From an uncultured Gammaproteobacteria bacterium (GTDB lineage: Bacteria > Patescibacteriota > Patescibacteriia > Magasanikbacterales > GWA2-37-8), in contig CAZEDL010000001.1 in the NCBI GenBank assembly GCA_964510885.1, forward strand, positions 312,982-376,981: 64,000 nucleotides of DNA. Direction: 5' to 3'. The translations under genes were made by a program, and so were the position numbers. Below the pieces are notes generated by a model. The model ran no database searches. It was given only the letters and a program-made list of their open reading frames with translations, and was not told where the DNA came from. This document shows, one piece after another, positions 5,170 to 56,807 of the stretch (position 1 is its first letter; each line of letters opens with the position of its first letter).

Positions 5170-6543
5170 TTAACTGGTCCAATAATACGCAATAATACTA
5201 AAATCACTTAGAGTGATAGCACCATCACCATTCAAGCGCTCTGCTTCTACCGTTGCAAATAGTGGACTCGGGGGTCGCTTATACCAAAATAAGGCGATGG
5301 ACACATCGATAAAATTTACTCGTCCGTCCGCATTTAGATCACCCTTTAGATACACTTTTTTGGAGATGGTGCTATCGGTAATCATTTCGTCAATTATTAC
5401 GGTTTGCGTAAGACTTGAGTTGCTCTGCCCTACCTGATTATCTTTTGCTTCAGCATTAATTATAAAATTACCCTTCCCTAATTGACGGGCCGGGATCTGA
5501 TATTGGTAAAATCCATTTTCATCGGCAGTCGTAGTAACTAGTAATGATTTGTTACCGGGGGTGCGCGGGGTAAGAGTAATAATAATTGTAGCCCGCGGCA
5601 GCGTCGAACCAGTAACGGCCAGTGACTCACCAGGGGTGAGGTACTGGCTATTCATTTTGAGAGTCGGACTCAAAAAGACCGCTCCAATGCGCGCTTGATC
5701 ATTTCCAGCAATATCAACGGGGTATGCAACGAGCGCGGAACGGTCACCATTTATATCCTGACTAGCCAAAGAAAAAGTGTATTTTCGCGCGCCAAGATCG
5801 GTCAGAGACAGCTCAAACCTACCTCTTTGATCAGCTTGACTAGATAAAATAAACTCTCCGTCCTTTAAGAGGATTACTGAAGCTAGTGGAGACGTATACC
5901 CGAAAAAGGTAACCTGCGCTACTGATGATGAAGCGGCTGCTGCGGCCGACGTGGGGACTGAAGTGCTAACTGATACCGGACTAATACCAAAATTTACAGA
6001 GGTTCCAGAGCTACCAGTAGTGACAGCGACTGCACTGGAAGTAGCCACTACTGAACCTTCAGTGTCACGGACTCTGACTATAAAGTAATATCTGGTGTTA
6101 GCACTCAGACCGGTTTGGGTGCGCGTCAGTAGACTGCCGACATTAAAATAACTATATGGACCACCACTGATTAGTGATTGGCCAATTTCATAACTCCCAA
6201 CAGTAATCCCTAAGCTACCGACAGCTGACGTCCAGCTAAGATCAGCGCTAGTAGTATGAGCGGTAACGGTCAGAACAGGGGTGGTAACTGAGGGGAGCTG
6301 GACAATGTTTTGGTCAGCTTTAAATTTGCTTGAGCTGCTTTCACTAGCGACTAGCAGGCCGCTATTACTGATGAGCTGAAAATTGTCAGAGGTCGACTGT
6401 TCGGCCCCCATGAGAAGGACGGGATCTCGAGTGATAAAATTTTCGGAACTAAAATCATCGGCCTTGGCCACTCTGCCGCCACTCGTGATAACTAACGCTG
6501 CCAGCAGTATAAAGAGTCGCGCCAACATAAACCTATTTGACAA
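5170..6543 (-). CDS. Secreted Ser/Thr-rich protein with a C-terminal dockerin-like tandem Ca-binding repeat
   Basis: Signal peptide MLARLFILLAALVITSGG. The C-terminus KGDLNADGRVNFIDVSIAL...RLNGDGAITLSDFSIIAYYW matches a dockerin type I duplicated EF-hand-like repeat. The middle is T/S/V-rich and probably Ig/FN3-like. Confidence 0.45.
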   Translation of the reverse strand: MSNRFMLARLFILLAALVITSGGRVAKADDFSSENFITRDPVLLMGAEQSTSDNFQLISNSGLLVASESSSSKFKADQNIVQLPSVTTPVLTVTAHTTSADLSWTSAVGSLGITVGSYEIGQSLISGGPYSYFNVGSLLTRTQTGLSANTRYYFIVRVRDTEGSVVATSSAVAVTTGSSGTSVNFGISPVSVSTSVPTSAAAAASSSVAQVTFFGYTSPLASVILLKDGEFILSSQADQRGRFELSLTDLGARKYTFSLASQDINGDRSALVAYPVDIAGNDQARIGAVFLSPTLKMNSQYLTPGESLAVTGSTLPRATIIITLTPRTPGNKSLLVTTTADENGFYQYQIPARQLGKGNFIINAEAKDNQVGQSNSSLTQTVIIDEMITDSTISKKVYLKGDLNADGRVNFIDVSIALFWYKRPPSPLFATVEAERLNGDGAITLSDFSIIAYYWTS

Positions 6544-10100: not shown

Positions 10101-12772
10101 CCAGTAATCGCATTAACAGCGCTTCCCACATCGATACCACCCAGATACGTCGGACTACTGGTGCTGACATCAAATATTTGTATTTCACAGCCGGTTGGAT
10201 CGCTAGCGGAACATGTTCCAGCACTAGTAGCTTTACCTAAAAAAGCATAACGACCATTGGCAAACACTGCATTAGCATTAATAGCTGAATCATCATATCC
10301 GCCTGAAAAAGTGGGGTTGCCGAGATTGTGGACAATATTTCCTCCTGAAACAATTAAATTAGACGACAGGGTAGTAGTCCCTGAGATCGATAACGCCCCC
10401 GCTATACTAGAGGAAGCTATACTGATGAAACCTGTCCCGAAGGTGGCCAACCCCCCAGTCTGCAGCGTTCCAGAAGCGCTTAGTGGGCCGGCGACCTGAA
10501 GTCCAGCCCCGATACTGCTACTAGCACTGATAATTAAGCCGCCCTGAAAAGTACTTAGTCCCGCAACTAAAAAAGTAGAAGAGACAGTGGTGGCACCCGA
10601 GATGCTTAGTGTGCCACCGATACTACTGCTAGCGTTGCTAATAAACCCCCCCGTTAGAGTAGATAGCTCATTTACCAAGAGCGTAGACGAGGCGTTCAAT
10701 GGGCCGGCAATCTGAAGACCGCCGCCAATTGAAGATGAAGCGCTGGAAATGAACCCGCTCGTTAGCGTCGTTAGGCCGCTTACTCCAAGGGTGCTATTTA
10801 ATGTTGCTGCTCCACCTACTAACAAGCTGGAGGAAGCATTTAAGGGCCCTGTAACCTGCAACCCCCCTCCAATGCTACTTGAAGCATTGCTAATGAATCC
10901 ATTTTCAAATGAGGTCAATCCGGTCAACGTACCACCGCTCAGTAACAGATAATTACTCGCGGTAATGGAGTCGACCACCATGGCGTCGGTGATACTATTA
11001 TCGGGTAAGGAAATAGAGTTATTAACTGTGAGCGTACCGACATTCTGAGTGGTAACAGAGGAAGAAGCAATGGTGGTGGTAGAAAAGGTCGTAGTAGCGG
11101 AAAAAGTATTTAAGCCGCTGAATGTTTGGTCGCTAGATAATCTGGCAAGTGTGGCCGCATCTGAGAGACTATCGGTGCTGAGGCCAGTAATAGTGGCACC
11201 GGTCAGAGTGAGCTGGCCGGTAACGGCTAGGTTGGTGGAGGTGGCGTTGGTGGATGTAGAGAACGAGGTGAACAAATTGGTAATGGTGGACGTGGAAGCA
11301 TTGACTAATACTCCCCCACTTAAAGTGGACAGTCCATTGGCCAAAAAGGTCGATGAGGCATTAAGCGCGCCAGCCACTTGTAATCCGCCTGCCACAGAAG
11401 AGGATGCTGAAGAAATAAAGCCACCGGTAGCAGTAGTGAGGCCACTGACGCCAAGGGTGCTGTTAAGCGTAGCAGCACCACCAACCAACAGGCTCGACGA
11501 GGCATTCAACGCGCCAGCCACCTGAAGACCAGCGCTAATGGAGGAGGAAGCAGTGGAGATAAAGCCACCTTGGAGCGCTGTCAAGCCGGTTAAGGTGCCG
11601 CCAGAGAGCAACAAGTAATTACTCGCGGTAATGGAGTCGACCACCATGGCGTCGGTGATAGAGTTGACCGGTAAGGAGAGTGAATTGTTTACGGTCAAGT
11701 TGGAAACGTTTTCAGTTGTAACGGTCGATGAGGCAATTGTAGTTGTTGTAAAAGTAGTGGTAGCGGAAAAAGTATTTAACCCGCTGAATGTTTGGTTGAC
11801 AGCTAGTTTCGCCAAGTTAGCCGCATCTGAGAGATTACTGCTAGATAGGCCAGTAATAGTGGCACCGGTCAGAGTGAGCTGGCCGGTAACGGCTAGGTTG
11901 GTGGAGGTGGCGTTGGTGGATGTGGCATTAGTGACAACGAGGTTAAATAGTGACGAAACGCCATCTACCGTCAAATTATTATACAAGCGAGCAGCTCCGC
12001 TCACCTGCAGAGTGGATGAACTAAATAACGCCCCCGTTTGATCGATACGAAGCAAGTTAAGCCCGGCTGCGGTTTGAAGTTGCAGCAAATCAACTGCTTG
12101 GCCGGTGGCACCGCGTACTGCTACCGGTACTGCCCCGGTAGAGGTAGCTTGGACAGAAAGAACAGAGCTCCCAAAAGGAGTGGTGGTGCCAATAGTTGAT
12201 TGGCCGGTCCCAGAAATACTACTAGCTGAAAGCGCGTAAGCAACGGCAGCAATTCGCTGGCGTGGGCTGAGAGTCTCGAAGGTCACTCCGCCACAAGAAT
12301 TACTGACTTGAGCCGCAACCTCTACATTAAGATAGACAGTATCATAATCTTGAAAATTAATATCAAGAATGTCACCTCCAGCACTCGTATCGCCGATCGG
12401 AGCAGTGAAAGTACCGTTTTTTACTAATACTGTCATTGTTGAGGGCGTGTTAGTCGGCCATAACTTGGTACCAGAACCAACTGAAGCTGTATTATACAAC
12501 GAGAAACGGAAACAATAATTAGCCCCAATATTTCCACCAAGCGCATTGGTACTACTGTCAAGCAAACGACCCTGATGATAGAGTATTCGAGGAACACCGG
12601 CGGCTCTAGTTATAGAGCCCGTAGAGAACAAACTCGACAAAAAAAATATACCCAATAGTCCGGCGCGAACCAACCGAGCCACATATTGGAGCGAATGATT
12701 GCCACCTCCCAAACGGATCATACGGCTGCTACGAGAAAAACACTTATTAACAAGCACGAAAAACAACCACAC
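7151..12772 (-). CDS. Giant (~1,870 aa) repeat-rich cell-surface protein (putative adhesin or pilus-associated). The likely true start is the internal Met near 12721.
   Basis: N-terminal signal/TM (LVRAGLLGIFFLSSLFSTGSITRAAG). Two ~250-aa tandem repeats (ATSTNATSTNLAVTGQLTLTGATITGLS...QTFSGLNTFSATTTF...). Nested ~60-aa sub-repeats (GFIS.ASSSI.GGLQV.G.LNASS.LLVGG). About 8 copies of a ~40-aa Cys-pair repeat (GTCS...TGCE[IL]Q.YD.S...P.Y.GG.D). S/T/P-rich C-terminal tail. Confidence 0.6.
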   Translation of the reverse strand: MWLFFVLVNKCFSRSSRMIRLGGGNHSLQYVARLVRAGLLGIFFLSSLFSTGSITRAAGVPRILYHQGRLLDSSTNALGGNIGANYCFRFSLYNTASVGSGTKLWPTNTPSTMTVLVKNGTFTAPIGDTSAGGDILDINFQDYDTVYLNVEVAAQVSNSCGGVTFETLSPRQRIAAVAYALSASSISGTGQSTIGTTTPFGSSVLSVQATSTGAVPVAVRGATGQAVDLLQLQTAAGLNLLRIDQTGALFSSSTLQVSGAARLYNNLTVDGVSSLFNLVVTNATSTNATSTNLAVTGQLTLTGATITGLSSSNLSDAANLAKLAVNQTFSGLNTFSATTTFTTTTIASSTVTTENVSNLTVNNSLSLPVNSITDAMVVDSITASNYLLLSGGTLTGLTALQGGFISTASSSISAGLQVAGALNASSSLLVGGAATLNSTLGVSGLTTATGGFISSASSSVAGGLQVAGALNASSTFLANGLSTLSGGVLVNASTSTITNLFTSFSTSTNATSTNLAVTGQLTLTGATITGLSTDSLSDAATLARLSSDQTFSGLNTFSATTTFSTTTIASSSVTTQNVGTLTVNNSISLPDNSITDAMVVDSITASNYLLLSGGTLTGLTSFENGFISNASSSIGGGLQVTGPLNASSSLLVGGAATLNSTLGVSGLTTLTSGFISSASSSIGGGLQIAGPLNASSTLLVNELSTLTGGFISNASSSIGGTLSISGATTVSSTFLVAGLSTFQGGLIISASSSIGAGLQVAGPLSASGTLQTGGLATFGTGFISIASSSIAGALSISGTTTLSSNLIVSGGNIVHNLGNPTFSGGYDDSAINANAVFANGRYAFLGKATSAGTCSASDPTGCEIQIFDVSTSSPTYLGGIDVGSAVNAITGFGDYLVFGTNAASGFCSATTATGCELQMYNMFNPLSPVYSGGIDATTQIKGLAMEGGRVVIAKAVSAATCTFANPAGCEIQLYDLSGPSSTPRFMGGANDAGGSNFDAVALSGRRAYIGKASNSGTCSSTDNTGCELQIYDITASTTALIYIGGVDNGDNTANGITVNGMNVFLVNNANTGTCSSSTRTGCELQLFDVINPTNPTYKNGLDLTDATKAVMSAGRYLYVGKNASNGASCSISTPANCEIQVYDVSTSALTFVGGVDSGSGVSGTTVNALYVAGRRFFIGVGGSVDSCRALSENSAHGCEFQYYDVGGIETGGLISHTAEIGGLQVLQNAFFDNSLFLRGGLFAGVGGISSEGGLSVIGTTTLGSALTVVGTINASGTLAITGGSGAGGLKITASNSSTTITSFASGSGAGAFIFDTNSALSTASSSILFSLRNAGSKVLSVDTGGNVRSTGTITSNAAGSTIGDLAEYVDLSPGDTSEPGDVLISDPENPNKFKKSTSAYAVNVAGVISDTGRFLIGVSGENRGALALSGLVNTKVTDENGPISTGDYVVTASRAGYAMRYDLESGKTASIIGMALEPLATSSARITILIIRGLALPGSPSSTSVTSSALSFFDTESELGGTEILTTSTVASSSSFTISPSSSLVIGGLTVNGPTVLNGMVSVIGDIDFLATTTFEGSAFFADQVRIASTLTVSGTIAASRLVANEIVTPGLSYVSSTVDALASTTADLGIQLASSTMALSAVASTTDYLFNRMTTLENQSNLTLANLASSSLSIDQPGILRAGLQVDMLSSISGAISVGSEILFIGRPYFNADSGGFVVVPPGQKNVAVEFQHEYLEQPVVNATLSLETTSTLSADEAAALEEIIFTEDIRYIIIKKTTRGFTLHLSKPAPFELTFSWIALAVKNARRATVIPSEIVESPSGEVLPTDTTSTISTPSVTPPVDELSTSSEEVFTPASEPPQEYDTSTNPEGG

Positions 12773-28372: not shown

Positions 28373-30845
28373 TACCCTCATTGATTTTTCTCTTCTGCCC
28401 GAAGGTGATATTGCTGACTGGCTCCAAAAAAACCACATTGGGTTAACTGTATCTGAAATTTTACATATTCAAAATACTATTCTGAAACGACCACCCACTT
28501 TGACGGAGTGTATTTTATGGTCAATCCAGGGGTCGGAGCATAGCTCCTACAAAAGTAGCCGACCTCATCTGAAACAATTTGCTACCAGTGGCCCGAGTGT
28601 CATGCTTGGGCCCGGTGAAGATGCGGGGATTGTAGAAGTCGCTCGAGATGCCGAGGGGCACCGGTATGGCATTGTGATGAGCCATGAGTCGCATAATAGC
28701 CCGTCACAAATTGTCCCCTACGAAGGCGCGGCAACTGGGGTGGGTGGCAATGTGCGCGATGTGGCATGCATGGGGGCCAAGGTGATTGCGAGCGCTGACC
28801 CGCTGCGCTTTGGTGATATTGCAAAAAATAAAACGAAATGGTTGACCGATGGCGTAGTCGCCGGCATTGCCGGGTATGGAAATCCTATCGGGGTACCGAT
28901 TATTGCAGGCGATATTTATTTTGATAAAAGTTACGATCCAAATTGTTTGGTGAATGTGGTTACGCTCGGCGTGGTGCGCGACGATGAGATTATTCACTCT
29001 CGCGCTCCTAGCAATGCCGACGGGTATAATCTCATTCTCGTTGGCAAGCCCACCGATAACAGCGGATTTGGTGGGGCGAGCTTTTCTTCGGTCGTGGTTG
29101 ATGAAACGAAAAAAGAAACCAACAGTGGCGCGGTGCAGCAGCCGAACGCCTTTCTCAAACGACATTTGCTGAAGGCGAGTTATGAATTGTTTAAGATTTT
29201 GAAAGCCAAAAATTTGATTGACCAGGTTGGATTCAAAGACTTGGGTGCAGGCGGGATTGCCTGCGTGTCGGTGGAGCTCGCTGACGCGGGTGACTATGGC
29301 GCTGAGGTGAACCTAGACTTAGTGCCGACGAGCATGGATAATTTAGCACCAGCGGTGATTCTGTGTTCGGAAACGCAAGAGCGATTTATGTGGGTGGCGT
29401 CGCCCGAGGTGACACCACTGATTTTAGAACATTATAATAAGACGTTTGATTTGCCGAAGATTGCCGGGGGCGCACAGGCCAAAGTAGTTGGTACGATTCG
29501 AGATGATGGGCAGTACATCGTTACCTTTAAGGGAGAAAAAGTTGTCGACGCACCGGCAAAAGAGGTGACACGGGGGTTGGTGTATGATCGACCCCATGTC
29601 AGATCTCAACGAGAATTGAGTGAGCCGGATATACCCGAACCGATCCCCTACTGTCATCCTGAGCAGGGCGAAGGACCCCTTAACGCAAACAATGCCTTGC
29701 AGTTAACTTTAAGGGATTCTTCGGCTGGGTCTCAGAATGACAAGTGGACATATAACGACATCCTCCTCAAAATTCTTTCTCACGAAAACGTTGCTTCCCG
29801 CGAGCCGATCTATGAACACTATGACAAAAATGTGCAAGGCATTACGGTGATCGAACCCGGTGAAGCTGATTCGGGCGTAATGCAACCCTTCAAAGATGAG
29901 ACATACCCTGCTGAAATTCGCTCCACGGGCGTTGCGCTATCAGTCGATCAAAACCCACGTTACTGCTTAGTAGATGCTTATTGGGGTGGAGTGAATGCAG
30001 TTGTTGAAGCGATGCGTAATGTGGCCGCGGTGGGAGCCTATCCGGTAGCATTGACGGATTGTCTGAATTTTGGCAATCCGGAAAAGCCGGAGGACATGGG
30101 AGTGTTCATCGAAGGAGTGCGGGGCGTGGCCGAAGCACAAACAGGGATTCATCTGCGAGATTTTCCCGACTCCCCTATCCCGATTATTTCGGGCAATGTA
30201 TCGCTTTATAAGCCGGTGGCACCGAGCCCGATTATTGCGTGTCTTGGTGCTATGCCTGATGCGAGCAAGGCGATTACGATGCACTTTAAAAAAGCTGACT
30301 CGGTCTTATTCGTGATTGGAGAGAGAAAAGATGAGTGTGGTGGAAGTGTGTATTATAGTCTATTCAACGAAGGGGTGGTGTTGGCTCCCTCCCATGCCGG
30401 AGGGGATGTTAGGTGGGGTGGGAGCAACACACTCCTCGGCGCCAATGTCCCTAAACCAAACCTAGCTGAAGTTGAAAGAGAGCTGCGTGCACTGACCGAG
30501 GCTATTCAAACTGGATTAATCCTAGCCGCCCATGATATTTCCGATGGCGGTATCGCGACGACACTCGCTGAGATGAGCTTTAGGAATGAAATTGGGTGCG
30601 ACGTGGCTATTCCGGGGGAACTTAGGACAGATAGAAAATTATTTGGCGAAAGTGGAGGCTGGGCGATTGAAGTTGAAAAACATCAGATTGATATGGTAAA
30701 AAATATTTTTGAAAAAAATAAACTAGAGCTACTAGAGATCGGGACTACTACCGCTGAAAAAAAATTACAGATGAACGGAGTCGTGACGGTTGATTTATCG
30801 GAAGCCAAAAAAATGTGGACAAATGGACTGAGAGAAAAATTATAG
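28354..30845 (+). CDS. purL: Phosphoribosylformylglycinamidine synthase subunit PurL (FGAM synthase II), carrying an in-frame MITE insertion at 29652-29742
   Basis: ILWSIQGSEHSSYKSSRPHLKQ...GPGEDAGIVEV..., the GNPIGVP and DxLNFGNPE regions, both AIR-synthase-like halves. The 31-codon insert YCHPEQGEGPLNANNALQLTLRDSSAGSQNDK is palindromic DNA. Confidence 0.85.
29652..29742. repeat. Family-A MITE-like element (copy A3) inserted in-frame inside purL
   Basis: tgtcatcctgagcagggcgaaggacccc...ctcagaatgaca. The internal ccttaacgc...aactttaagggattcttcg core is shared with copy A4. The ORF is uninterrupted across it. Confidence 0.75.
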
Positions 30846-36991: not shown

Positions 36992-37029
36992 ATCAACAAG
37001 ATACCATATTAATTGGTAAAATAAATTAC

Positions 37030-37121
37030 TGTCATCCTGAACACAATGAAGGATCCCTTAACGCTATAATTAGTACAGAATTTTAACTTTAAGGGATTCT
37101 TCGCTACCGCTCAGAATGACA
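37030..37121. repeat. Family-A MITE-like element (copy A4), intergenic between purK and purE
   Basis: tgtcatcctgaacacaatgaaggatccc...ctcagaatgaca. The core is near-identical to copy A3. Confidence 0.75.
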
Positions 37122-40495: not shown

Positions 40496-40550
40496 TAATT
40501 ATTTAAAACAATATTAAAAGGATATTAAGCGGCTATTGAGAGGATATTTT

Positions 40551-42020
40551 ATGAATATTTTACTTGTTGGTTCAGGAGCTCGTGAACATGCCATTGCTCG
40601 AGCTATAAAGAAATCAAAGACCGAGACGAATCTTTTTTGTTTTGGTTCAAGTCGGAACCCAGGAATTATAGAACTTGTTTGTCATTCCAACGACGAAGGA
40701 GAAATCTCTGTCCGACACGATAATAACACATTGAACCAGAGATCCCTCGTCGGCGCGAGCCTCGCTCGGGATGACAGTAATGCCTACCGCGTCGGAAAAT
40801 TGGATGACGTCACTTCGATACTACAATTTGCTAAAAAAAATAAAATCGATTGGGCGATTATTGGACCTGAGCTGCCGCTGTCAGTTGGCCTGGTGGATGA
40901 ATTGAAAGCAATTAGCATTCCCTGTATTGGACCGACTAAGCAATTAGCCCAAATTGAAACGAGCAAGGCCTTTGCGCGGGATTTACTTTCTTATCATGGC
41001 GTGCCCGGACTGCCCCAGTACAAACGATTTGATTTTTTTGAAGCACTGGAAGTGATACAGGAATATATTCATTCGCTTGATGATAATTATGTAGTGAAGG
41101 CTGACGGGCTCATGGGTGGTAAGGGGGTTAAAGTCTACGGCGAGCAGCTACAAAGTTTTGAGGATACACTGCAATTTATCTTAGAAATAAAAGCAGCCAA
41201 TAGCCCATTTGTAATCGAAGAAAAATTCGTGGGGCAAGAATTTTCACTGATTAGCTTTTGTGATGGGGTACACCTGGCCCATATGCCGGCAGTGCAAGAT
41301 CATAAACGGGCCTATGTTGGCGATACCGGACCTAATACGGGTGGTATGGGCAGTTATTCGGACAGCAATCACTCACTCCCTTTTTTAACTGAAAAAGATA
41401 TTGCCCAGGCTCAAAAAATAAATGAATTAACAGCAGCGGCACTACTCAAGCAATTTGGCGTACCCTACAAAGGCATCCTGTATGGTGGTTTTATGACTAC
41501 GGCAGAAGGGGTGAAACTGATTGAATATAACGCCCGCTTTGGCGATCCGGAAAGCATTAATGTCTTGGCGTTACTGGAAACTGATTTGGTGGAAATTTGT
41601 CAGGCGATTACCAGCGGCGCCTTAGACACTATAGAGATTAAGTGGAAAAATGTAGCCACTGTTTGTAAATATGTTGTACCCGAAGGATATCCTGATAATC
41701 CGGTAAAAAATCAAGTTGTCGATGTTTCGGAAGTTAAGGATGCAGATTCTTTATATTTCGCGGCAATTGATGAACGAGAAGGAAAATTATATGAAACTGG
41801 TTCGCGAGCCATTGCGGTATTGGGTGTAGGCACCACTATTACTGAAGCGGAACAAAAAGCCGAGGAAGAAATTAAACAAATTAAAGGTTCACTATTTCAT
41901 CGGGAAGATATTGGGACAGAGGAGTTGATTGAGAAGAGAGTTCAGATAATGAGTCAAATACGCAATGAACGCAATCCCCGCTTGGGCGGGGTAGGGGTGG
42001 GTGAGTCCGCTGAGCTTTAA
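40551..42020 (+). CDS. purD: Phosphoribosylamine-glycine ligase (GAR synthetase). It has an in-frame MITE insertion (40680-40777), and its last ~16 codons come from the left inverted repeat of the DUF559 element.
   Basis: MNILLVGSGAREHAIA, ATP-grasp core, C-terminal domain. Insert CHSNDEGEISVRHDNNTLNQRSLVGASLARDDSN is palindromic DNA. The C-terminus NPRLGGVGVGESAEL is encoded by a B-family half-site. Confidence 0.85.
   Translation: MNILLVGSGAREHAIARAIKKSKTETNLFCFGSSRNPGIIELVCHSNDEGEISVRHDNNTLNQRSLVGASLARDDSNAYRVGKLDDVTSILQFAKKNKIDWAIIGPELPLSVGLVDELKAISIPCIGPTKQLAQIETSKAFARDLLSYHGVPGLPQYKRFDFFEALEVIQEYIHSLDDNYVVKADGLMGGKGVKVYGEQLQSFEDTLQFILEIKAANSPFVIEEKFVGQEFSLISFCDGVHLAHMPAVQDHKRAYVGDTGPNTGGMGSYSDSNHSLPFLTEKDIAQAQKINELTAAALLKQFGVPYKGILYGGFMTTAEGVKLIEYNARFGDPESINVLALLETDLVEICQAITSGALDTIEIKWKNVATVCKYVVPEGYPDNPVKNQVVDVSEVKDADSLYFAAIDEREGKLYETGSRAIAVLGVGTTITEAEQKAEEEIKQIKGSLFHREDIGTEELIEKRVQIMSQIRNERNPRLGGVGVGESAEL
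40680..40777. repeat. Family-A MITE-like element (copy A5) inserted in-frame in purD
   Basis: tgtcattccaacgacgaaggagaaatctctg...cagagatccctcgtcggcgcgagcctcgctcgggatgaca. The right end is ~85% identical to the TIR of the GIY-YIG element. It is read in the same frame (TGT CAT ... GAC A) as copy A3. Confidence 0.7.
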
Positions 42021-42438
42021 GAGACATACTTATGTTAAACAATCAAACCCATAAAAATTATAAGCCCTCCCTTAAGCCACTCACTCGTCACTTACGTACG
42101 AATTCTACATTAAGCGAGGTTATTTTATGGAATCATCTTAAAAATCGAGGCTTATTAGGTTATAAATTTCGACGTCAAACTCCTATTTTAAATTATATTG
42201 TTGATTTTTATTGTAAAGAATTACAGTTAGCGATTGAGATTGACGGGATAACTCATGATGAAAAAATTGAGTATGATGTGGAGCGACAGAAAAAAATGGA
42301 AAAAGTTGGTATCTTTGTGTTACGGTTTCAAGATAGTGAAATTAAAAAGGATATTGATATTATCCTGCAACGAATTGTTGAGTGGGTAAACGGCCACGCA
42401 TCGCCCTCACCCACCCCTACCCCGCCCAAGCGGGGATT
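41973..42438 (+). mobile_element. Inverted-repeat-flanked element (family B, copy B1) carrying a DUF559/Vsr-like endonuclease gene, inserted at the purD/purN junction
   Basis: Left IR aatccccgcttgggcggggtaggggtgggtgag (41973-42005). Right IR ctcacccacccctaccccgcccaagcggggatt (42406-42438), its exact reverse complement. The DUF559 ORF lies between them. Confidence 0.7.
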
Positions 42439-43036
42439 GCTATCCAGTGACGCCGGTATACACCTTGCCATCCTCGGTTCCACACGCGGTACCAATCTGC
42501 AAGCGATTATTGATGCTATTGCAGAAAAAAAATTAAACGCTTATATCGATATCGTTATCAGCAATAAAGCCGATGCCTATATTTTGGAGCGCACCAAGCA
42601 ACATGGATTACGGGTCGTTTTTATCGATAGCAGAAATAAAAGCCGAGAACAGTTTGACCAAGAAGTTTTAAATGAATTAAAAAAATATCATATTGATCTC
42701 GTCCTGCTTATCGGTTACATGCGTATCCTCTCCCCCACTTTCGTACAGACGTATAGAAATAAAATTTTAAATGTTCACCCGTCCCTACTCCCCGCCTTTG
42801 CTGGCGGGATGGACATGAATGTACATGAAGAAGTGTTAAAATCAGGGGTGACAGAAACGGGTTGTACGATTCATCTGGTTGACGATGGAGTGGATACCGG
42901 CAAGATTTTGCTGCAAAAAAAATGTACCGTTGAACCAGGGGATACGGCGGAGAGTTTGAAAGATAAAGTGCAACAATTGGAGGGAGAAGCGTGGATTGAA
43001 ATATTAAAAAATTGCAATTTAACAGATACTTTCTAA
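42032..43036 (+). CDS. purN: Fusion ORF: an N-terminal DUF559 endonuclease-domain protein (Vsr/PD-(D/E)xK-like, ~125 aa) fused in-frame, through the right IR, to phosphoribosylglycinamide formyltransferase PurN. The PurN part is ~42437-43036, with a possible TTG start at 42437.
   Basis: DUF559 signature LRTNSTLSEVILWNHLKNRGLLGYKFRRQTPILNYIVDFYC...IEIDGITHDE...VLRF. PurN: LAILGSTRGTNLQAII, NVHPSLLPAFAG, DTGKIL. There is no in-frame ATG at the PurN N-terminus. Confidence 0.7.
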   Translation: MLNNQTHKNYKPSLKPLTRHLRTNSTLSEVILWNHLKNRGLLGYKFRRQTPILNYIVDFYCKELQLAIEIDGITHDEKIEYDVERQKKMEKVGIFVLRFQDSEIKKDIDIILQRIVEWVNGHASPSPTPTPPKRGLLSSDAGIHLAILGSTRGTNLQAIIDAIAEKKLNAYIDIVISNKADAYILERTKQHGLRVVFIDSRNKSREQFDQEVLNELKKYHIDLVLLIGYMRILSPTFVQTYRNKILNVHPSLLPAFAGGMDMNVHEEVLKSGVTETGCTIHLVDDGVDTGKILLQKKCTVEPGDTAESLKDKVQQLEGEAWIEILKNCNLTDTF

Positions 43037-43040
43037 TTTT

Positions 43041-44732
43041 ATGAATCTTTCCCTCACCCCTATCACTCGCGCCCTCATCTCCGTCTCTGATAAAACCGGC
43101 ATTATTGCTTTTGCCGAAAAATTAGCTGAAAAAAATGTGGAAATTATTTCCACTGGCGGGACGGCCAAAGCCCTCGTGGAAGCAGGGATTCCGGTCATTG
43201 AAATTTCTGATTTCACTGGTTTCCCAGAAATGATGAATGGCCGAGTAAAAACCCTTCACCCCAAAGTTCATGGCGGCATTCTGGGCCTCAGGGACGCACA
43301 CGCGAGTACTGCCGCCGAGCATGGAATCAAGTGGATCGATTTGGTGGTGTGTAATCTATATCCATTCGCTGCCACTATTCAGAAACCGGGCGTGAGTGAA
43401 GACGAAGCGATTGAGAATATTGATATCGGCGGGCCGAGCATGATAAGGAGTGCGGCCAAAAATGTGGGGTGGGTCGGGGTAGTGGTTGATCCGTCAGATT
43501 ATGAGTTTGTGAAGGGTGAATTAGAAACACAAGGCGGAATCACGATCGAGACGCGAAAAAGATTATCAGCCAAAGCATTTGGGCATACGGCGGCATATGA
43601 TGCGCTGATCAGTAATTATTTTAATGCAGAGCCATTCCCCAGCGAGCTGACACTCGGCTACAAAAAATTCTATGATTTGCGCTATGGAGAAAACCCGCAT
43701 CAGCTCGCTTGCGTGTATCAAGAATCAATACCGACTGATCAGAATGTACTCGGGGCAATCATTCATCAAGGTAAGCAGCTCTCCTACAACAATATTAACG
43801 ATGCGGATGGCGCGTGGTTCACTCTCAGGGAATTCCCTGAGCCGACCTGCGTGGTAGTAAAACATGCTAATCCATGTGGGGTGGCAAGCGATAGCGATAT
43901 TACTGTAGCATTTAAACGGGCCTATGCAGCGGATGCGCTCTCGGCCTTTGGTGGTGTCATTGCTTTGAATCGACCGTGTACCGCAGCTATTGCTGAGGAG
44001 ATAGCCAAAGTCTTTGCCGAAATTGTGTTGGCTCCTTCATATGAAACTAAGGCTTTGGAAGTATTGGCACCAAAAAAGAATTTACGAGTGTTAGAAATGA
44101 AGAGAGAGGCGGCTGTACATAACACACAAAATCCCCGCTTGGGCGGGGTAGGGGTGGGTGAGACCTTTGCGTCGCCGGACTCAACGACCTCACCCACCCC
44201 TGGCCTGTGGGCCACCCCCGCCCAAGCGGGGATTGTCCGTCGACCAGTTTATAAATCTGAACTAAAAAACAATTCACCGTTAGAGTATCGTTTTATTAAT
44301 GGTGGACTGCTCGTACAGGAGCAAGATACTAAAGAGATAACTCTGCCTGACCTCAAAATTGTCACTGCTAAACAACCAAGCGAACAAGAATTACAAACTA
44401 TGCTGTTTGCCTGGAAAGTCTTGAAACACATGAAATCAAATGCGATTTTGGTTGCCAAAGACAATACCACGGTGGGAGTTGGTGTGGGGCAGGTGTCGCG
44501 CGTGGATGCGGTGGATATCGCGCTCAAGAAAGCTGGAGATCGCTTGAACGGCTCAATTTTGGCCTCTGATGCCTTCTTCCCTTTTCGCGATAGTATTGAT
44601 AAACTGGCGGGAACTGGAATTACCGCCATCATTCAACCGGGCGGGTCAGTGAAAGACAAGGAAGTGATCGAGGCCTGCAACGAGCATGGGATTGCGATGG
44701 TGTTTACGGGAGTGAGGTGTTTTAAGCATTAA
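43041..44732 (+). CDS. purH: Bifunctional AICAR transformylase/IMP cyclohydrolase, with an in-frame 35-codon palindromic insert (44130-44234)
   Basis: MGS-like N-terminus RALISVSDKTGI, AICARFT core. Insert NPRLGGVGVGETFASPDSTTSPTPGLWATPAQAGI is encoded by B-family half-sites. Confidence 0.9.
   Translation: MNLSLTPITRALISVSDKTGIIAFAEKLAEKNVEIISTGGTAKALVEAGIPVIEISDFTGFPEMMNGRVKTLHPKVHGGILGLRDAHASTAAEHGIKWIDLVVCNLYPFAATIQKPGVSEDEAIENIDIGGPSMIRSAAKNVGWVGVVVDPSDYEFVKGELETQGGITIETRKRLSAKAFGHTAAYDALISNYFNAEPFPSELTLGYKKFYDLRYGENPHQLACVYQESIPTDQNVLGAIIHQGKQLSYNNINDADGAWFTLREFPEPTCVVVKHANPCGVASDSDITVAFKRAYAADALSAFGGVIALNRPCTAAIAEEIAKVFAEIVLAPSYETKALEVLAPKKNLRVLEMKREAAVHNTQNPRLGGVGVGETFASPDSTTSPTPGLWATPAQAGIVRRPVYKSELKNNSPLEYRFINGGLLVQEQDTKEITLPDLKIVTAKQPSEQELQTMLFAWKVLKHMKSNAILVAKDNTTVGVGVGQVSRVDAVDIALKKAGDRLNGSILASDAFFPFRDSIDKLAGTGITAIIQPGGSVKDKEVIEACNEHGIAMVFTGVRCFKH
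44130..44234. repeat. Family-B palindromic MITE-like element (copy B2), with no cargo gene, in-frame inside purH
   Basis: aatccccgcttgggcggggtaggggtgggtgag ... ctcacccacccctgg..cccgcccaagcggggatt. Both half-sites are the same as those flanking the DUF559 gene. Confidence 0.75.
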
Positions 44733-44738
44733 TTTACT

Positions 44739-44880
44739 TGTCATTGCGAGGAGTGATCCCGATTCGCATCGGGAGAACGACGAAGCAATCCCTTTGATTT
44801 CAGAACTACTTAAAATTAAAAATACCCCTGCAAACAAGGGGATTGCCACGTCTTCGCTTGGGCTCCTCCTCGCAATGACA
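44739..44880. repeat. Family-A MITE-like element (copy A6), nested palindromes, intergenic between purH and the amidohydrolase
   Basis: tgtcattgcgaggag...ctcctcgcaatgaca outer IR. Inner hairpins atcccgattcgcatcggga and aatcccc..ggggatt. The terminal cAATGACA supplies an in-frame ATG to the downstream ORF. Confidence 0.7.
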
Positions 44881-46273: not shown

Positions 46274-46688
46274 TGTCATCCCGAGGAACGAGGGATCCCC
46301 TGGTTTGAGTAAGTAGTAAATAAGCAGAAATATATATGTTACAACCAACTTACTACATCTACTTCCTCATGAACGCCTATCATAGTGTCCTGTATGTGGG
46401 TGTTACCAATGATTTAGCCAGACGTATTTCAGAACATAAACAGCATTTAATTCCTGGTTTTACCAAAAAATATAATGTTGATAATTTAGTTTATTGCGAA
46501 TCATTTAGTGATATTAATCAAGCAATTCAACGAGAGAAAGAATTGAAGGGGTGGCGACGTTCGAAAAAATTAGAATTAATAAAAAGCATCAATAGTGACT
46601 TAAGAGATTTGAGTAAGGAGTGGGAGTAATTTTTTATTATTTTACTGGGCACTGCATACAGGGGGATCCCTCCTTCGTCGGGATGACA
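46274..46688 (+). mobile_element. Inverted-repeat-flanked element (family A, copy A7) carrying a GIY-YIG nuclease gene
   Basis: Left TIR tgtcatcccgaggaacgagggatcccc (46274-). Right TIR ggggatccctccttcgtcgggatgaca (-46688). The two are ~28 bp, reverse complements of each other, ~85% identical. A single 97-codon ORF lies between them. Confidence 0.7.
46336..46629 (+). CDS. GIY-YIG family nuclease (URI-domain, YhbQ/COG2827-like)
   Basis: YYIYFLMNAYHSVLYVGVTNDLARRISEHK...REKELKGWRRSKKLELI matches GIY..YIG, the catalytic R and E, and the KxWxRxxK tail. Confidence 0.8.
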   Translation: MLQPTYYIYFLMNAYHSVLYVGVTNDLARRISEHKQHLIPGFTKKYNVDNLVYCESFSDINQAIQREKELKGWRRSKKLELIKSINSDLRDLSKEWE

Positions 46689-48700: not shown

Positions 48701-50536
48701 ATGGAAGCCTCTAAAAATGAAATTGCAATTCTCGACTTTGGATCACAGTATACCCACCTCATTGCCCGGCGGATCAGAGAATTAGGAGTGGTTTCACACA
48801 TTTATCCGACCGATATAGCGGCCAAAAACCTTAAAAACGTAGTCGGCATTATTCTCTCGGGGGGGCCAAAAAGTGTCGTACGGGAAGAGACTCTCCCCTA
48901 TGACAAAGATATTTTTGATCTCGGAATTCCGATCTTGGGGCTCTGCTATGGCCACCAACTCATGGCCATGCATTTTGGTGGAGTGGTCGGAGCGGGTAGT
49001 GCTCGGGAATACGGGCAAGCCGAGCTAACGGTACAGGCTTCACCCATCTTCAAGAATATCCCTAAGCGCTCAACGGTGTGGATGAGTCATGGCGATCATG
49101 TATCGGTCGTCCCGCCGGGTTGGCAGGCTATTGCGGATAGTGGCGGCGAGGCAGTGGCGGCCATGGAATACTCCGAAAAAAAATGGTACGGATTCCAATT
49201 TCATCCGGAGGTGTATCACTCCGCGCACGGGAAAAAGATGTTAAGTAATTTTGTGTTTGATATCTGCGGAGCCAGCAAGAATTGGGATTCCAAAACGCAA
49301 CTGAAAACGGTAAGTGAAGAAATTAAACAGGCCGCGGGAGATAAAAATGTCTTTTTACTGGTGAGTGGAGGCGTGGATTCTACGGTCTGTTTCGCACTCC
49401 TTGAAAAAATACTGGGCAAGAATCGGGTGTACGGTTTGCATGTAGATAGTGGCCTCATGCGTCTTGATGAGAGTAAGAAAATTACTCGGGCTCTAAAACA
49501 AACTGGCTTTTCTAACTTACACGTTTATCACGCAGAAAAAGAATTTTTAAATCGACTAAAAGGAATTATTGAACCAGAACAAAAAAGAAAAATCATTGGC
49601 GACACCTTCCTCGACATCGTGGATCGGGTGATGAAAGAAAAAAACATGGATTCTGGTGGATGGCTCGTTGGCCAAGGCACCATTTACCCCGATACGATTG
49701 AATCCGGAGGAACCAAACATGCGGTGGTGATCAAAACTCACCACAACCGCGTGCCACGGATCCAGCAGATGATTGCGGAGGGAAAAATTATTGAACCGCT
49801 GAAAGAGTTATACAAAGATGAGGTGCGGGCAATTGGGCGCCAGCTTAAGCTACCAAAAGAATTAATTGAGCGGCATCCGTTCCCGGGGCCAGGACTGGGG
49901 ATTCGGATTTTGTGTTCAAAGGGGTCGAAAGAGAGAGCTACACCTATTGAAGGTGATAGATTCCCGCTGCTACGCGGGAATGACACTGAGGATAGTAATA
50001 CACTCTATTCCCTACCAATTAAATCCGTCGGTGTGCAGGGTGACGAACGATCGTATTCGCATCCAGCCATTATTATTGGGAACAGTCTGGCCGAAGAGAA
50101 AAAAATCTGGAAGACCATTCACACTCTAGCACCAGCTATTACCAATCAACATCATGAAGTGAATCGCGTGATGCTGCCTGTGCTGGGAGACAGAAAAAAA
50201 ATCTTGACATCGCGTGTGCATGCGGCAACCCTGACTAAAAAGCGAATTGCACTATTACAAAAAATCGATGCTATCGTGCATCGTTATGTGCTGGCAGCTA
50301 AATCATGTAGCCACATTTGGCAATTGCCGGTGGTGTTGGTGCCGTTTGGTTATAAGCACAGAGAATCAATCGTGCTCCGACCATTTCAATCCGAAGAAGT
50401 GATGACCGCTTCGTTTGCCCTGATCCCATGGCCAGTACTCAAAAAAATTCTGGCAGCGATTGCGAGGCTGAAAGCAGTTGATTTTGTGTTTTATGATGTG
50501 ACGAATAAGCCTCCTGGTACTATTGAATGGGAATAA
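48701..50536 (+). CDS. guaA: GMP synthase (glutamine-hydrolysing)
   Basis: GATase ILDFGSQYTHLIARRIRELGV, catalytic LGLCYGHQ, HPE. PP-loop VSGGVDSTV. C-terminal dimerisation domain. Confidence 0.9.
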   Translation: MEASKNEIAILDFGSQYTHLIARRIRELGVVSHIYPTDIAAKNLKNVVGIILSGGPKSVVREETLPYDKDIFDLGIPILGLCYGHQLMAMHFGGVVGAGSAREYGQAELTVQASPIFKNIPKRSTVWMSHGDHVSVVPPGWQAIADSGGEAVAAMEYSEKKWYGFQFHPEVYHSAHGKKMLSNFVFDICGASKNWDSKTQLKTVSEEIKQAAGDKNVFLLVSGGVDSTVCFALLEKILGKNRVYGLHVDSGLMRLDESKKITRALKQTGFSNLHVYHAEKEFLNRLKGIIEPEQKRKIIGDTFLDIVDRVMKEKNMDSGGWLVGQGTIYPDTIESGGTKHAVVIKTHHNRVPRIQQMIAEGKIIEPLKELYKDEVRAIGRQLKLPKELIERHPFPGPGLGIRILCSKGSKERATPIEGDRFPLLRGNDTEDSNTLYSLPIKSVGVQGDERSYSHPAIIIGNSLAEEKKIWKTIHTLAPAITNQHHEVNRVMLPVLGDRKKILTSRVHAATLTKKRIALLQKIDAIVHRYVLAAKSCSHIWQLPVVLVPFGYKHRESIVLRPFQSEEVMTASFALIPWPVLKKILAAIARLKAVDFVFYDVTNKPPGTIEWE

Positions 50537-50572
50537 TGAAAAAAACCTGCGACAGACGCAGGTTTTTTAGTA

Positions 50573-52042: not shown

Positions 52043-52366
52043 ATGTGGGCATTACCTCCCTAAGTTCGCTTATTTATCAATAATACGATATACCCCACCG
52101 TACACTATCAGAATGCCGCCAGCAGTCCACCACCAGCCGTATTGGCCAGAAAAATAGCCGCTGACATAGGCCATGAGGCAAATACTGGCAGCGATGAAGG
52201 CTACCATATGGCGGATAAAATTATCGGTCATATGAAGTTACACAGAAAGCAAATGTCAGGAGTTACGTAGTTTTTATTTTTATCAGTATACCATTTTTAG
52301 AGAAAAAAATGAACAGGGTAATTAAAAAATCTTGCTGAGGAGCAAGATTTTTTGTGATTTTAACCG

Positions 52367-56655: not shown

Positions 56656-56776
56656 CGCCCCCAACCCCTGCCCCATCCCGATCCGCATCGGGACAGCGTG
56701 GCCCGAATCAATCCCCTGCCTTTCGTTCTCTAGTAGTTAGCTAGTAGCGAGCGAAAGGGGTTGACTTCGAGAGAAT

Positions 56777-56807
56777 TAAAAAATCCTGCTTCTAGGCAGG
56801 ATTTTTT
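56777..56807. terminator. Bidirectional rho-independent terminator between the convergent lipoprotein and hypothetical genes
   Basis: aaaaaatcctgc-ttctag-gcaggatttttt: a perfect 8-bp stem flanked by an A-run and a T-run. Confidence 0.7.

Follow-up and report, generated by a model that had tools for sequence, protein, structure and literature searches.

Repeats of the BoxC/PIT/TMECO class have been known since the early 1990s, and thousands of copies are found in Proteobacteria and Cyanobacteria (Bergler, 1992; Hoyne and Maher, 2000; both as cited in Holder et al., 2015, PMC4666352). TMECO, for example, is present in 23 copies in Escherichia coli MG1655, five of them close inverted pairs, and totals 3610 copies in 262 genomes of Proteobacteria, while cyanobacteria hold related motifs at very high frequency (PMC4666352). 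The motif forms a triplex and stalls polymerases in vitro, marks unstable loci, and has been reported as always intergenic; near its copies the authors 'never found ... remnants of transposases or integrases' (PMC4666352). A full-text literature search, made in an incomplete library, returned no paper that ties these repeats to the DUF559 family or to its E. coli member YcjD. Here we describe such a pairing in a 64,000-nt stretch of DNA (hereafter, the window; positions 312,982 to 376,981 of contig CAZEDL010000001.1, assembly GCA_964510885.1) from a bacterium deposited as an uncultured gammaproteobacterium and placed by GTDB among the Magasanikbacterales (Patescibacteriota). At the purD-purN junction of the window, a DUF559 nuclease gene lies between two inverted half-sites that, judged by their design, appear to belong to the BoxC/PIT/TMECO class while representing a different sequence family. 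Gene and half-sites together form a 466-bp unit (41973-42438), for which we favour the reading of a small selfish element.

The half-site, AATCCCCGCTTGGGCGGGGTAGGGGTGGGTGAG (33 nt), occurs with 0 mismatches at three places in the whole window, namely 41973-42005 (+), 42406-42438 (-), and 44130-44162 (+), and its expected count by chance is 0 (100 shuffles). No further copy of the 33-nt repeat and no second DUF559 gene are present within the 64-kb window, and the hairpin core CCCCGCTTGGGCGGGG has 4 occurrences there. Around the DUF559 gene, a repeat finder extends the inverted repeat to 42 nt with 93% complementarity (41971-42012 / 42399-42440). The first-pass annotation of this DNA had described a perfect 33-nt inverted repeat bracketing a DUF559 gene, and both exact matching and Pfam bear this out. 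The DUF559 open reading frame (ORF) begins at ATG 42032, between the two arms, with the Pfam domain on residues 17-118, and the identities of the flanking purD, purN, and purH genes are likewise backed by Pfam. Of the ORF of about 125 codons that had been placed between the repeats, the domain and the start codon stand, but the frame lacks its own stop codon and stays open across the right arm and on into purN. In the same way, a half-site does lie at the 3' end of purD as had been noted, to which we add that purD itself reads into the left arm and stops a short distance beyond it (Table 1).

The unit is a discrete and precise insertion without target duplication. Deleting exactly its 466 nt restores a purD that ends in ...IRNERAIQ* at TGA 42448-42450, together with a 201-aa purN that runs from ATG 41965 and starts with MNALSSDAGIHLAILGS..., and the overlap of the reconstructed purD stop and purN start is that of an ordinary gene junction. 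An empty site is available for comparison. One of the closest PurH relatives, which share about 70-76% identity, is encoded on a contig (L100) whose gene order matches that of the window: purF, an extra gene, purD, purN, purH, and an amidohydrolase gene. The junction on that contig lacks the element, with purD ending in ...RIQIMKNLRCT*, a 43-nt spacer, and then purN (MKKIIHLAILGSTRGTNL). Both the exact-removal reconstruction and this empty site uphold the earlier description of the inverted-repeat-flanked DUF559 unit as a discrete element. The unit is not flanked by duplicated bases. We also weighed, and rejected, a target duplication of 2 bp (AT): with the corresponding 462 nt taken out, purD has no stop close by and purN no ATG start in frame. 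This alternative was worked by hand from the sequence, and the scripted test covered the 466-nt removal only. The first-pass annotation had also entertained a transposon with terminal inverted repeats (TIRs), but the absence of a target-site duplication does not point to a classical TIR transposon of the cut-and-paste kind.

The insertion has rebuilt an operon junction. It swapped the last three codons of purD for 16 element-encoded codons (NPRLGGVGVGESAEL plus the preceding residue), so that purD now borrows its end from the element, and purN has lost its start codon. The DUF559 ATG lies 11 nt past the new purD stop, behind the Shine-Dalgarno-like motif AAGAGA, and its frame continues through the right arm into purN as a 334-aa ORF (42032-43036). 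As a consequence, purN is readable only as a DUF559-PurN fusion or from TTG 42437, a codon formed partly by the last bases of the element. Since the purN start now depends on the element, loss of the DUF559 reading frame might harm purN expression. The DUF559 gene has a G+C content (GC) of 31.8%, and of 26.9% at third codon positions, compared with a GC of 40-49% in neighbouring genes, and this low content argues that the gene is of foreign origin.

DUF559 is a very large family of 'unknown function', and Vsr, the namesake of the family, is a repair enzyme. The family has been placed with Vsr in the PD-(D/E)xK superfamily (PMC3424549; also Pfam). The window protein is an unambiguous member, matching PF04480 over profile positions 6-107 of 109 (E=5.2e-33, 113.6 bits against a cut-off of 20.6), whereas its match to NCBIfam PRK09767 (YcjD; E=2.6e-21) falls below the equivalog cut-off. 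Among known structures, the Neisseria endonuclease-like protein in PDB 3HRL is matched by the sequence (E=2e-17) and by the family profile (E=1e-24). A second match of the profile (E=3e-4) is to 3R3P, which holds the catalytic domain of I-Bth0305I, a homing endonuclease of a group I intron. The DUF559 family thus appears already to include a characterised homing endonuclease. Every one of the 26 invariant family residues is in place, D58, E69, D71, and H75 (IVDF...EIDG..H) among them, so that the nuclease is probably active.

Several other affiliations for the element were sought and set aside. DUF559 is the sole ORF in the element, and neither the ORF list nor Pfam reveals a transposase domain in it. 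PADLOC gave no meaningful match to a defence system, the nearest being a marginal match to a methyl-directed restriction enzyme model (E=9e-4). There were 0 exact matches to the repeat core in IMG/VR and only 2 weak DUF559 matches among 50,697 phage records, and a phage origin was rejected on the near-absence of both from phage data. A known RNA family or a group I or II intron was rejected on an Rfam scan of 41500-44700 (E up to 10), which returned chance-level matches only, for example CRISPR-DR28 at 22 bits against a threshold of 35 bits.

The third exact copy of the half-site belongs to a gene-less form of the element, which lies in frame in a linker of purH (Table 1). This copy spans 35 codons and is open in the purH frame, and 3 of its 6 frames are open; folded computationally as single-stranded DNA, its 105 nt form one long hairpin (-48.9 kcal/mol, z=-9.2). 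It had been described as carrying the same two half-sites about 40 bp apart. The left half-site is indeed identical, but the right one is split by a 12-nt mini-hairpin, GGCCTGTGGGCC, between its C-box and terminal hairpin, and the interior measures 27 nt.

The gene-less copy and the 466-bp unit are related by a deletion. Read in reverse orientation, the purH copy has the interior GTC-GTTGAG-T-CCGGCGACGCAAAGGT, and the 466-bp unit carries TCC-GCTGAG just inside its left arm (42006-42014) and ATT-GTTGAG-T-GGGTAAACGGCCACGCATCGCC just inside its right arm (42375-42405), so that within the window the interior match between gene-bearing and gene-less forms runs GTTGAGT...CGGC(G/C)ACGCA. GCTGAG (42009-42014) and GTTGAG (42378-42383) bracket the stretch that is absent from the gene-less copy, and a deletion between these two G(C/T)TGAG direct repeats would yield the short form. 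A comparable correspondence is seen in the family of elements from Patescibacteria. The DUF559 gene on contig L102 ends in ...CAGATCGTTGATTGGATAAACGGCCACGCAATGGT directly before the arm, and the gene-less copies L001 and L004 carry ...CAATCGTTGG(C/T)CACGCAATGG(G)T in the same place, setting ATCGTTGATTGGATAAACGGCCACGCAATGGT at the end of the gene against CAATCGTTGGCCACGCAATGG in the gene-less copies. The retained stretch encodes an I-V-(D/E)-W motif, whose I115 and W118 hardly vary across the family alignment whatever the module type. Because gene-less copies keep both the leader stub and the last conserved codons, the simplest reading of these sequences is that the short form was derived from the gene-bearing form and not the reverse. 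The earlier proposal of an internally deleted derivative of the DUF559 unit is thus well founded, both in the shared ends and in the make-up of the interior.

Gene-less copies are also the majority form elsewhere. A scan of one genome per GTDB species with 22 nt of the half-site returned 19 loci, one of which (L005) was discounted as a chance match in a G-rich Micromonospora tract. The 18 that remain come from metagenome-assembled genomes (MAGs) of Magasanikbacteria and Saccharibacteria (Patescibacteria) and of uncultured Gammaproteobacteria, and none has a DUF559 gene in the up to 8 kb examined at each locus, which is why we regard the gene-less copies as the majority. Eleven of the 18 are complete elements of about 100 nt built to one plan, in which ATTCCCCGCTTGGGCGGGG-TAGGGGTGGGTGAG precedes about 30 nt of interior, followed by CTCACCCACCCCT, frequently a mini-hairpin (GGCCGCGAGGCC, for example), and then CCCCGCCCAAGCGGGGAAT. 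The other seven have a half-site without a matching second arm; six of these are solitary, and in the remaining one (L008) the right arm belongs to a different repeat family. Two of the solitary half-sites, both in gammaproteobacterial MAGs (L003, ~6100-6130; L015, ~6330-6356), are preceded by GATTACG(C/T)(A/G)GATTACGT repeats and have no right arm within 8 kb.

The association of DUF559 genes with such repeats is general across phyla and not a local accident. The best protein homologues of the window nuclease are 54-68% identical (1664 matches) and come from many environments and phyla. Their C-termini, PPLPRPSGE or PTPTPPKRG, correspond to two reading frames of the right-arm DNA, and in at least 67 of the top 120 homologues the protein finishes with a tail that the module encodes (such as PTPxPSxEGN, PPLPRPSGE, or THP*), in several cases as a tandem array. 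On groundwater contigs of Patescibacteria (L102, L103, and L104/L105), DUF559 genes have ATTCCCCGCTTGGGCGGGGTAGGGGTGGGT on both sides. Compared with the window, L102, L103, and L104 are 64-68% identical in coding nucleotides and 91-100% identical in the arms, with an identical 28-nt core, and it follows from these figures that the ends are under far stronger constraint than the gene. Some DUF559 genes (P0078, P0079, P0049, P0111, L103) are followed by a complete gene-less element, as at 3880-3993 of L103, or by 3-6 tandem modules, and translation of these tandem arrays gives the proteins repeated KPTPxPSxEGN tails.

A metagenome scan with the DUF559 family alignment added 80 further loci at 40-56% identity. 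In an unguided search, the best flank-to-flank inverted repeat scored at least 15 in most of the 76 loci scored, and mismatched-pair controls reached at most 13. We then applied a strict module finder, requiring a perfect C-rich hairpin and a following G-box, to the 81 loci with enough flank, which comprise metagenome loci, the look-up loci L103-L111 (with some duplicates), and the window. Of these 81, 35 have a module on both sides, 26 on one side only, and 20 have none. This amounts to about 0.6 modules per DUF559 flank, as against a background of 0.0135 per 230 nt per strand elsewhere on the same contigs, or an enrichment of about 40-fold. Most background matches are themselves gene-less copies of the same families, and by our estimate the enrichment would still be several-fold even were all the background intergenic.

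Module type and protein lineage go together. The stems differ between loci (CCCCGC, CCCCTC(C), CCCCCC(T), CCCCCTT, CCCTCCC), yet 31 of the 35 two-sided loci have one and the same 6-mer stem on left and right, and protein identity is 55.0% within a stem type against 50.5% between types, a difference reached in 0 of 2000 permutations. Indeed, L103 has two DUF559 genes 1 kb apart, each with its own module type, and also carries gene-less copies of both types. The pairing of DUF559 with its repeats as a real unit is, then, confirmed well beyond the window, at dozens of unrelated metagenomic loci in several phyla. The objection raised at the outset, that the repeats could be generic hairpins unrelated to the gene, is contradicted by the flank enrichment and by the conservation of the ends.

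The half-sites share a distinctive design. In each module, a loop joins a C-stem to a G-stem, and a spacer of 2-5 nt parts the G-stem from a G-box that mirrors it. In the window module, 5 of 6 triads are compatible with the purine-motif triplex rule (G over G, A/T over A). Of 82 modules beside DUF559 genes, 56 show a perfect mirror and 71 deviate from it at one position at most, and A positions of the G-stem are faced by A or T in 84 of 93 cases. The triad-compatible fraction is 0.915, compared with 0.850 +/- 0.009 when G-boxes are exchanged between modules; as the module finder required only G-richness of the G-box, the mirror relation was not imposed by selection. The triplex mirror rule accounts for the A-to-T/A co-variation better than a G-quadruplex reading does. 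The TMECO consensus itself, CCCTCNCCC-N3-6-GGGNGAGGG-N3-GGGNGAGGG, is not matched, as the window stems are 6 nt long and of other sequence.

E. coli offers a parallel. The product of ycjD in strain K-12, also a DUF559 protein, is 39% identical to the window protein, and its gene lies between sapF and fabI. On its 3' side follow, in order, a degenerate module overlapping the stop codon (...RRSPSP*), a duplicated remnant of the ycjD 3' end, and a BoxC/TMECO element (CCCCTCGCCCCTCTGGGGAGAGGGTTAGGGTGAGGGG). The 71-nt BoxC/TMECO piece has a median of 16 places per genome in 5426 complete genomes, of which 3378 have ycjD as a single copy at one locus. Among 60 E. coli chromosomes sampled at even spacing, the 37 that are ycjD-positive hold 11-24 BoxC-like places and the 23 that are ycjD-negative hold 1-16, with 1-3 in B2 strains (UTI89, Nissle, ST131) and about 12 in O157/O55 strains. 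This pattern fits a partner relationship and lends it weak support. The ycjD-negative strains carry the eefRABCD efflux operon at the ycjD position, the two being alternative occupants of the site (PMC12817139), so that these strains offer no clean empty site at which the boundaries could be read.

Taken together, these observations incline us, with a fair margin of doubt, to regard 41973-42438 as a small selfish element, a DUF559 nuclease gene bounded by inverted structured end modules on which the nuclease acts. We postulate that what the nuclease recognises is the end modules when folded as a hairpin or triplex, probably in DNA that is single-stranded or extruded. It may nick or cut where AAT meets CCCC, both in its own copy and, acting in trans, in copies without the gene, after which the host's replication or repair would have to finish the move, since a PD-(D/E)xK hydrolase cannot ligate. 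Perhaps the logic is akin to that of RAYT transposases and REPINs, with a hydrolytic nuclease of a different fold. DUF559 as the mobilising enzyme, its binding and cutting of the modules, and the route of integration are steps that we infer from sequence.

A number of points weigh against this proposal. The link between DUF559 and the repeats is one of association, and because a hydrolytic PD-(D/E)xK nuclease by itself cannot join DNA, integration into non-homologous sites is left without an explanation. Among the homologue loci, 20 of 81 lack a module and 26 have one on one side only. Many copies are not visibly mobile, as one homologue (P0113) lies between cysS and ispG in all 6 places listed (16 contigs read) and E. 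coli ycjD is a single-copy gene at one locus. Moreover, the difference in BoxC copy number is confounded by phylogroup, because ycjD and eefRABCD alternate at that locus. A wider version of the proposal, that DUF559/YcjD nucleases may be the enzymes of a hitherto unrecognised and very widespread class of triplex- or hairpin-ended bacterial elements, with the BoxC/PIT/TM repeats of E. coli, cyanobacteria, and many further bacteria, and the in-frame palindromic inserts in genes of bacteria with reduced genomes, as gene-less derivatives, and with transposition-like movement by a PD-(D/E)xK hydrolase recognising non-B DNA, seems to us a real possibility that falls somewhat short of an even chance.

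Other explanations can be given for a nuclease gene that sits between repeats. Perhaps a free-standing homing endonuclease has parasitised a pre-existing repeat, cutting the centres of gene-less copies and being copied in by break repair via the arms, while something else spreads the repeats. Such an origin would suit the profile match to the I-Bth0305I catalytic domain, the absence of a target-site duplication, and the great excess of gene-less over gene-bearing copies; a hydrolytic nuclease is also better fitted to homing than to transposition, and one L103 gene does have a complete gene-less element on one side. Against it, gene-less interiors hold the homologue of the last conserved codons (I115/W118), which argues for deletion from a gene-bearing form, and the several module families, each with its own DUF559, would require invasion to have happened repeatedly and in parallel. 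With about 45 nt, the arms offer little length for recombinational repair, the spread of the repeat to new sites such as purH stays unexplained, and phages, where free-standing homing endonucleases usually reside, almost entirely lack the gene. We consider homing unlikely on balance, while giving it serious weight.

Less probable again is a host-serving or domesticated nuclease that processes hairpins or triplexes, relieving replication blocks or policing repeats, and that sits where repeats accumulate without moving them. E. coli ycjD, fixed at its locus in single copy, and P0113 in its one conserved context would agree with such a role, as would the fact that Vsr is a repair enzyme. It would also agree with the stalling of polymerases in vitro by BoxC/TMECO structures and with their occurrence at unstable loci (PMC4666352). 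But in the window a gene of foreign composition arrived with both arms as one precise insertion, damaging two housekeeping genes, and the strict inverted orientation and fixed distance of the arms, the normal ending of the ORF inside the right arm, and the gene fragments in gene-less copies are hard to reconcile with a resident repair function. Finally, GC-rich intergenic hairpins or terminators might lie beside DUF559 genes by coincidence, and modules of this class do occur far from any DUF559 gene. Yet the enrichment and conservation figures exclude a chance association: modules are about 40-fold enriched at DUF559 flanks, and the 28-nt core is identical across phyla. In addition, the window copies are in frame inside coding sequence and not at transcript ends, and there is no Rfam family match, so that we give coincidence almost no credence.

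If DUF559 and the BoxC-type repeats are linked physically and in evolution, each would gain a candidate function, REP/RAYT-type systems would gain a second enzyme class, and palindromic elements that insert in frame into proteins would gain a partner gene. The DUF559-BoxC link also makes a long-standing question testable in E. coli K-12, where YcjD could be set against BoxC.

Table 1. Coordinates of the element, its gene-less copy, the adjoining genes, and the E. coli locus used for comparison (window numbering unless stated otherwise).
Feature	Position	Strand	Evidence
Complete element, 466 bp: left module, leader, DUF559 gene, right module	41973..42438	+	Deletion reconstruction; L100 empty
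Left end module: AAT, hairpin CCCCGC-TTGG-GCGGGG (41976-41991), TA, mirror G-box GGGGTGGGTGAG	41973..42005	+	Exact repeat
Leader stub: current purD stop TAA 42018-42020, AAGAGA (Shine-Dalgarno-like), GCTGAG direct repeat 42009-42014	42006..42031	+	Sequence
DUF559 (YcjD-like, Vsr-like PD-(D/E)xK) nuclease coding region	42032..42405	+	PF04480 and 3HRL matches
Right end module, exact reverse complement of the left; translated as SPSPTPTPPKRGL, the DUF559 ORF tail	42406..42438	-	
Gene-less derivative resembling a miniature inverted-repeat transposable element (MITE), 105 nt, in frame in purH linker	44130..44234	+	Relatives' PurH without it
Gene-less copy, left module	44130..44162		
Gene-less copy, interior (27 nt)	44163..44189		
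Gene-less copy, C-box	44190..44202		
Gene-less copy, extra mini-hairpin	44203..44214		
Gene-less copy, terminal hairpin	44216..44231		
Gene-less copy, ATT	44232..44234		
purD	40536..42020	+	Pfam GARS_N/A/C; alignment with L100 purD
purN, without its own ATG	42437..43036	+	Pfam Formyl_trans_N on fused-ORF residues 145-324
Ancestral purN start ATG, parted from purN by the insertion	41965..41967	+	Reconstruction; compare L100 purN
Ancestral purD stop TGA, today 3' of the insertion	42448..42450	+	Reconstruction
ycjD locus (L112)	E. coli K-12 NC_000913.3, 1351040-1351830		

The element is not the only repeat-bounded nuclease gene in the window. A GIY-YIG nuclease gene (46336-46629; Pfam E=5e-17, GC 33%) lies in a 34-nt inverted repeat (46274-46307/46655-46688; TGTCATCCCGAGGAACGAGGGATCCCC...), and copies related to this unit (46274-46688) are found at 44739-44880, 29649-29686, and 37027-37064. 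The space between purH and the amidohydrolase gene holds a gene-less palindromic relative (TGTCATTGCGAGGAG...CTCCTCGCAATGACA), which is translated as part of the annotated N-terminus of the amidohydrolase. The unit has the same architecture, a nuclease gene within inverted repeats accompanied by gene-less copies, with a different enzyme and repeat family.

In-frame inserts are also seen in other places. Residues 48-80 of purD (~40677-40775) are a 33-aa insert, VCHSNDEGEISVRHDNNTLNQRSLVGASLARDD, that is absent from the L100 orthologue and has the look of a protein loop encoded by a repeat of a third family. Seven PurH relatives (P0122, P0137, P0138, P0139, P0171, P0178, P0202) have differing repeat-derived inserts in frame at 2-3 loop positions, which include the same linker as the purH copy in the window, and two others (P0168, P0188) are PurN-PurH fusions of 703-715 aa. 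Like Rickettsia with its palindromic elements, this lineage tolerates palindromic insertions in frame in large number. Of a different nature are three copies of AATTAAAAAA-hairpin-TTTTTT (50535-50568, 52320-52353, 56774-56807), which look like ordinary bidirectional intrinsic terminators, and a 300-nt direct repeat (10647-10946 / 11313-11612; 64% identity, 666 nt apart), probably two paralogous gene segments.

How, then, does the element compare with described systems? Its short and full-length forms resemble a MITE paired with an autonomous insertion sequence, in that their 33-nt ends are identical terminal inverted repeats and the short copy is an internal deletion, but the element has neither a DDE or other recognised transposase nor a target-site duplication. 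With Vsr-like homing endonucleases such as I-Bth0305I it shares a homologous catalytic domain, the nature of a small selfish gene, and the lack of a target duplication. Homing of that type involves residence in a self-splicing intron or intein, or beside the cleavage site within a conserved gene, and copying into empty alleles, whereas the window gene lies outside any group I or II intron detectable by Rfam, and its structured inverted repeats and its gene-less derivatives at unrelated sites are unlike the products of homing. The Rickettsia palindromic elements (RPEs) are likewise palindromes of about 100 nt that insert in frame into housekeeping genes and are tolerated as peptide loops, as are here the copy in purH and the inserts of other repeat families in purD and in the PurH of relatives. 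Their sequences are unrelated to ours, and whereas the full-length copy described here has a candidate partner gene inside it, no partner gene is known for RPEs.

The two nearest counterparts are the REPIN/RAYT and the BoxC/PIT/TMECO systems. In REPIN/RAYT, too, a small nuclease gene lies between inverted hairpin repeats, the same repeats occur as many gene-less inverted doublets, repeat type co-varies with enzyme lineage, and there is no target-site duplication. The window enzyme, however, is a Vsr-like PD-(D/E)xK hydrolase and not an HUH Y1 (IS200/IS605-like) transposase, and its repeats have a mirror G-box in place of the GTAG/CGTC tag. RAYTs are mostly inherited vertically, whereas elements of the window type cross phyla and their gene is foreign in composition. 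From BoxC/PIT/TMECO repeats, the window element differs in sequence (CCCCGC-TTGG-GCGGGG-TA-GGGGTG, not the TMECO consensus), in having copies in frame inside genes where TMECO is reported as intergenic, and in carrying a DUF559 gene between its repeats where no mobility gene has been published near TMECO. Both nevertheless have the same module design, dispersed and highly conserved copies, and frequent close inverted pairs, and one BoxC/TMECO element adjoins the DUF559 gene of E. coli, ycjD.

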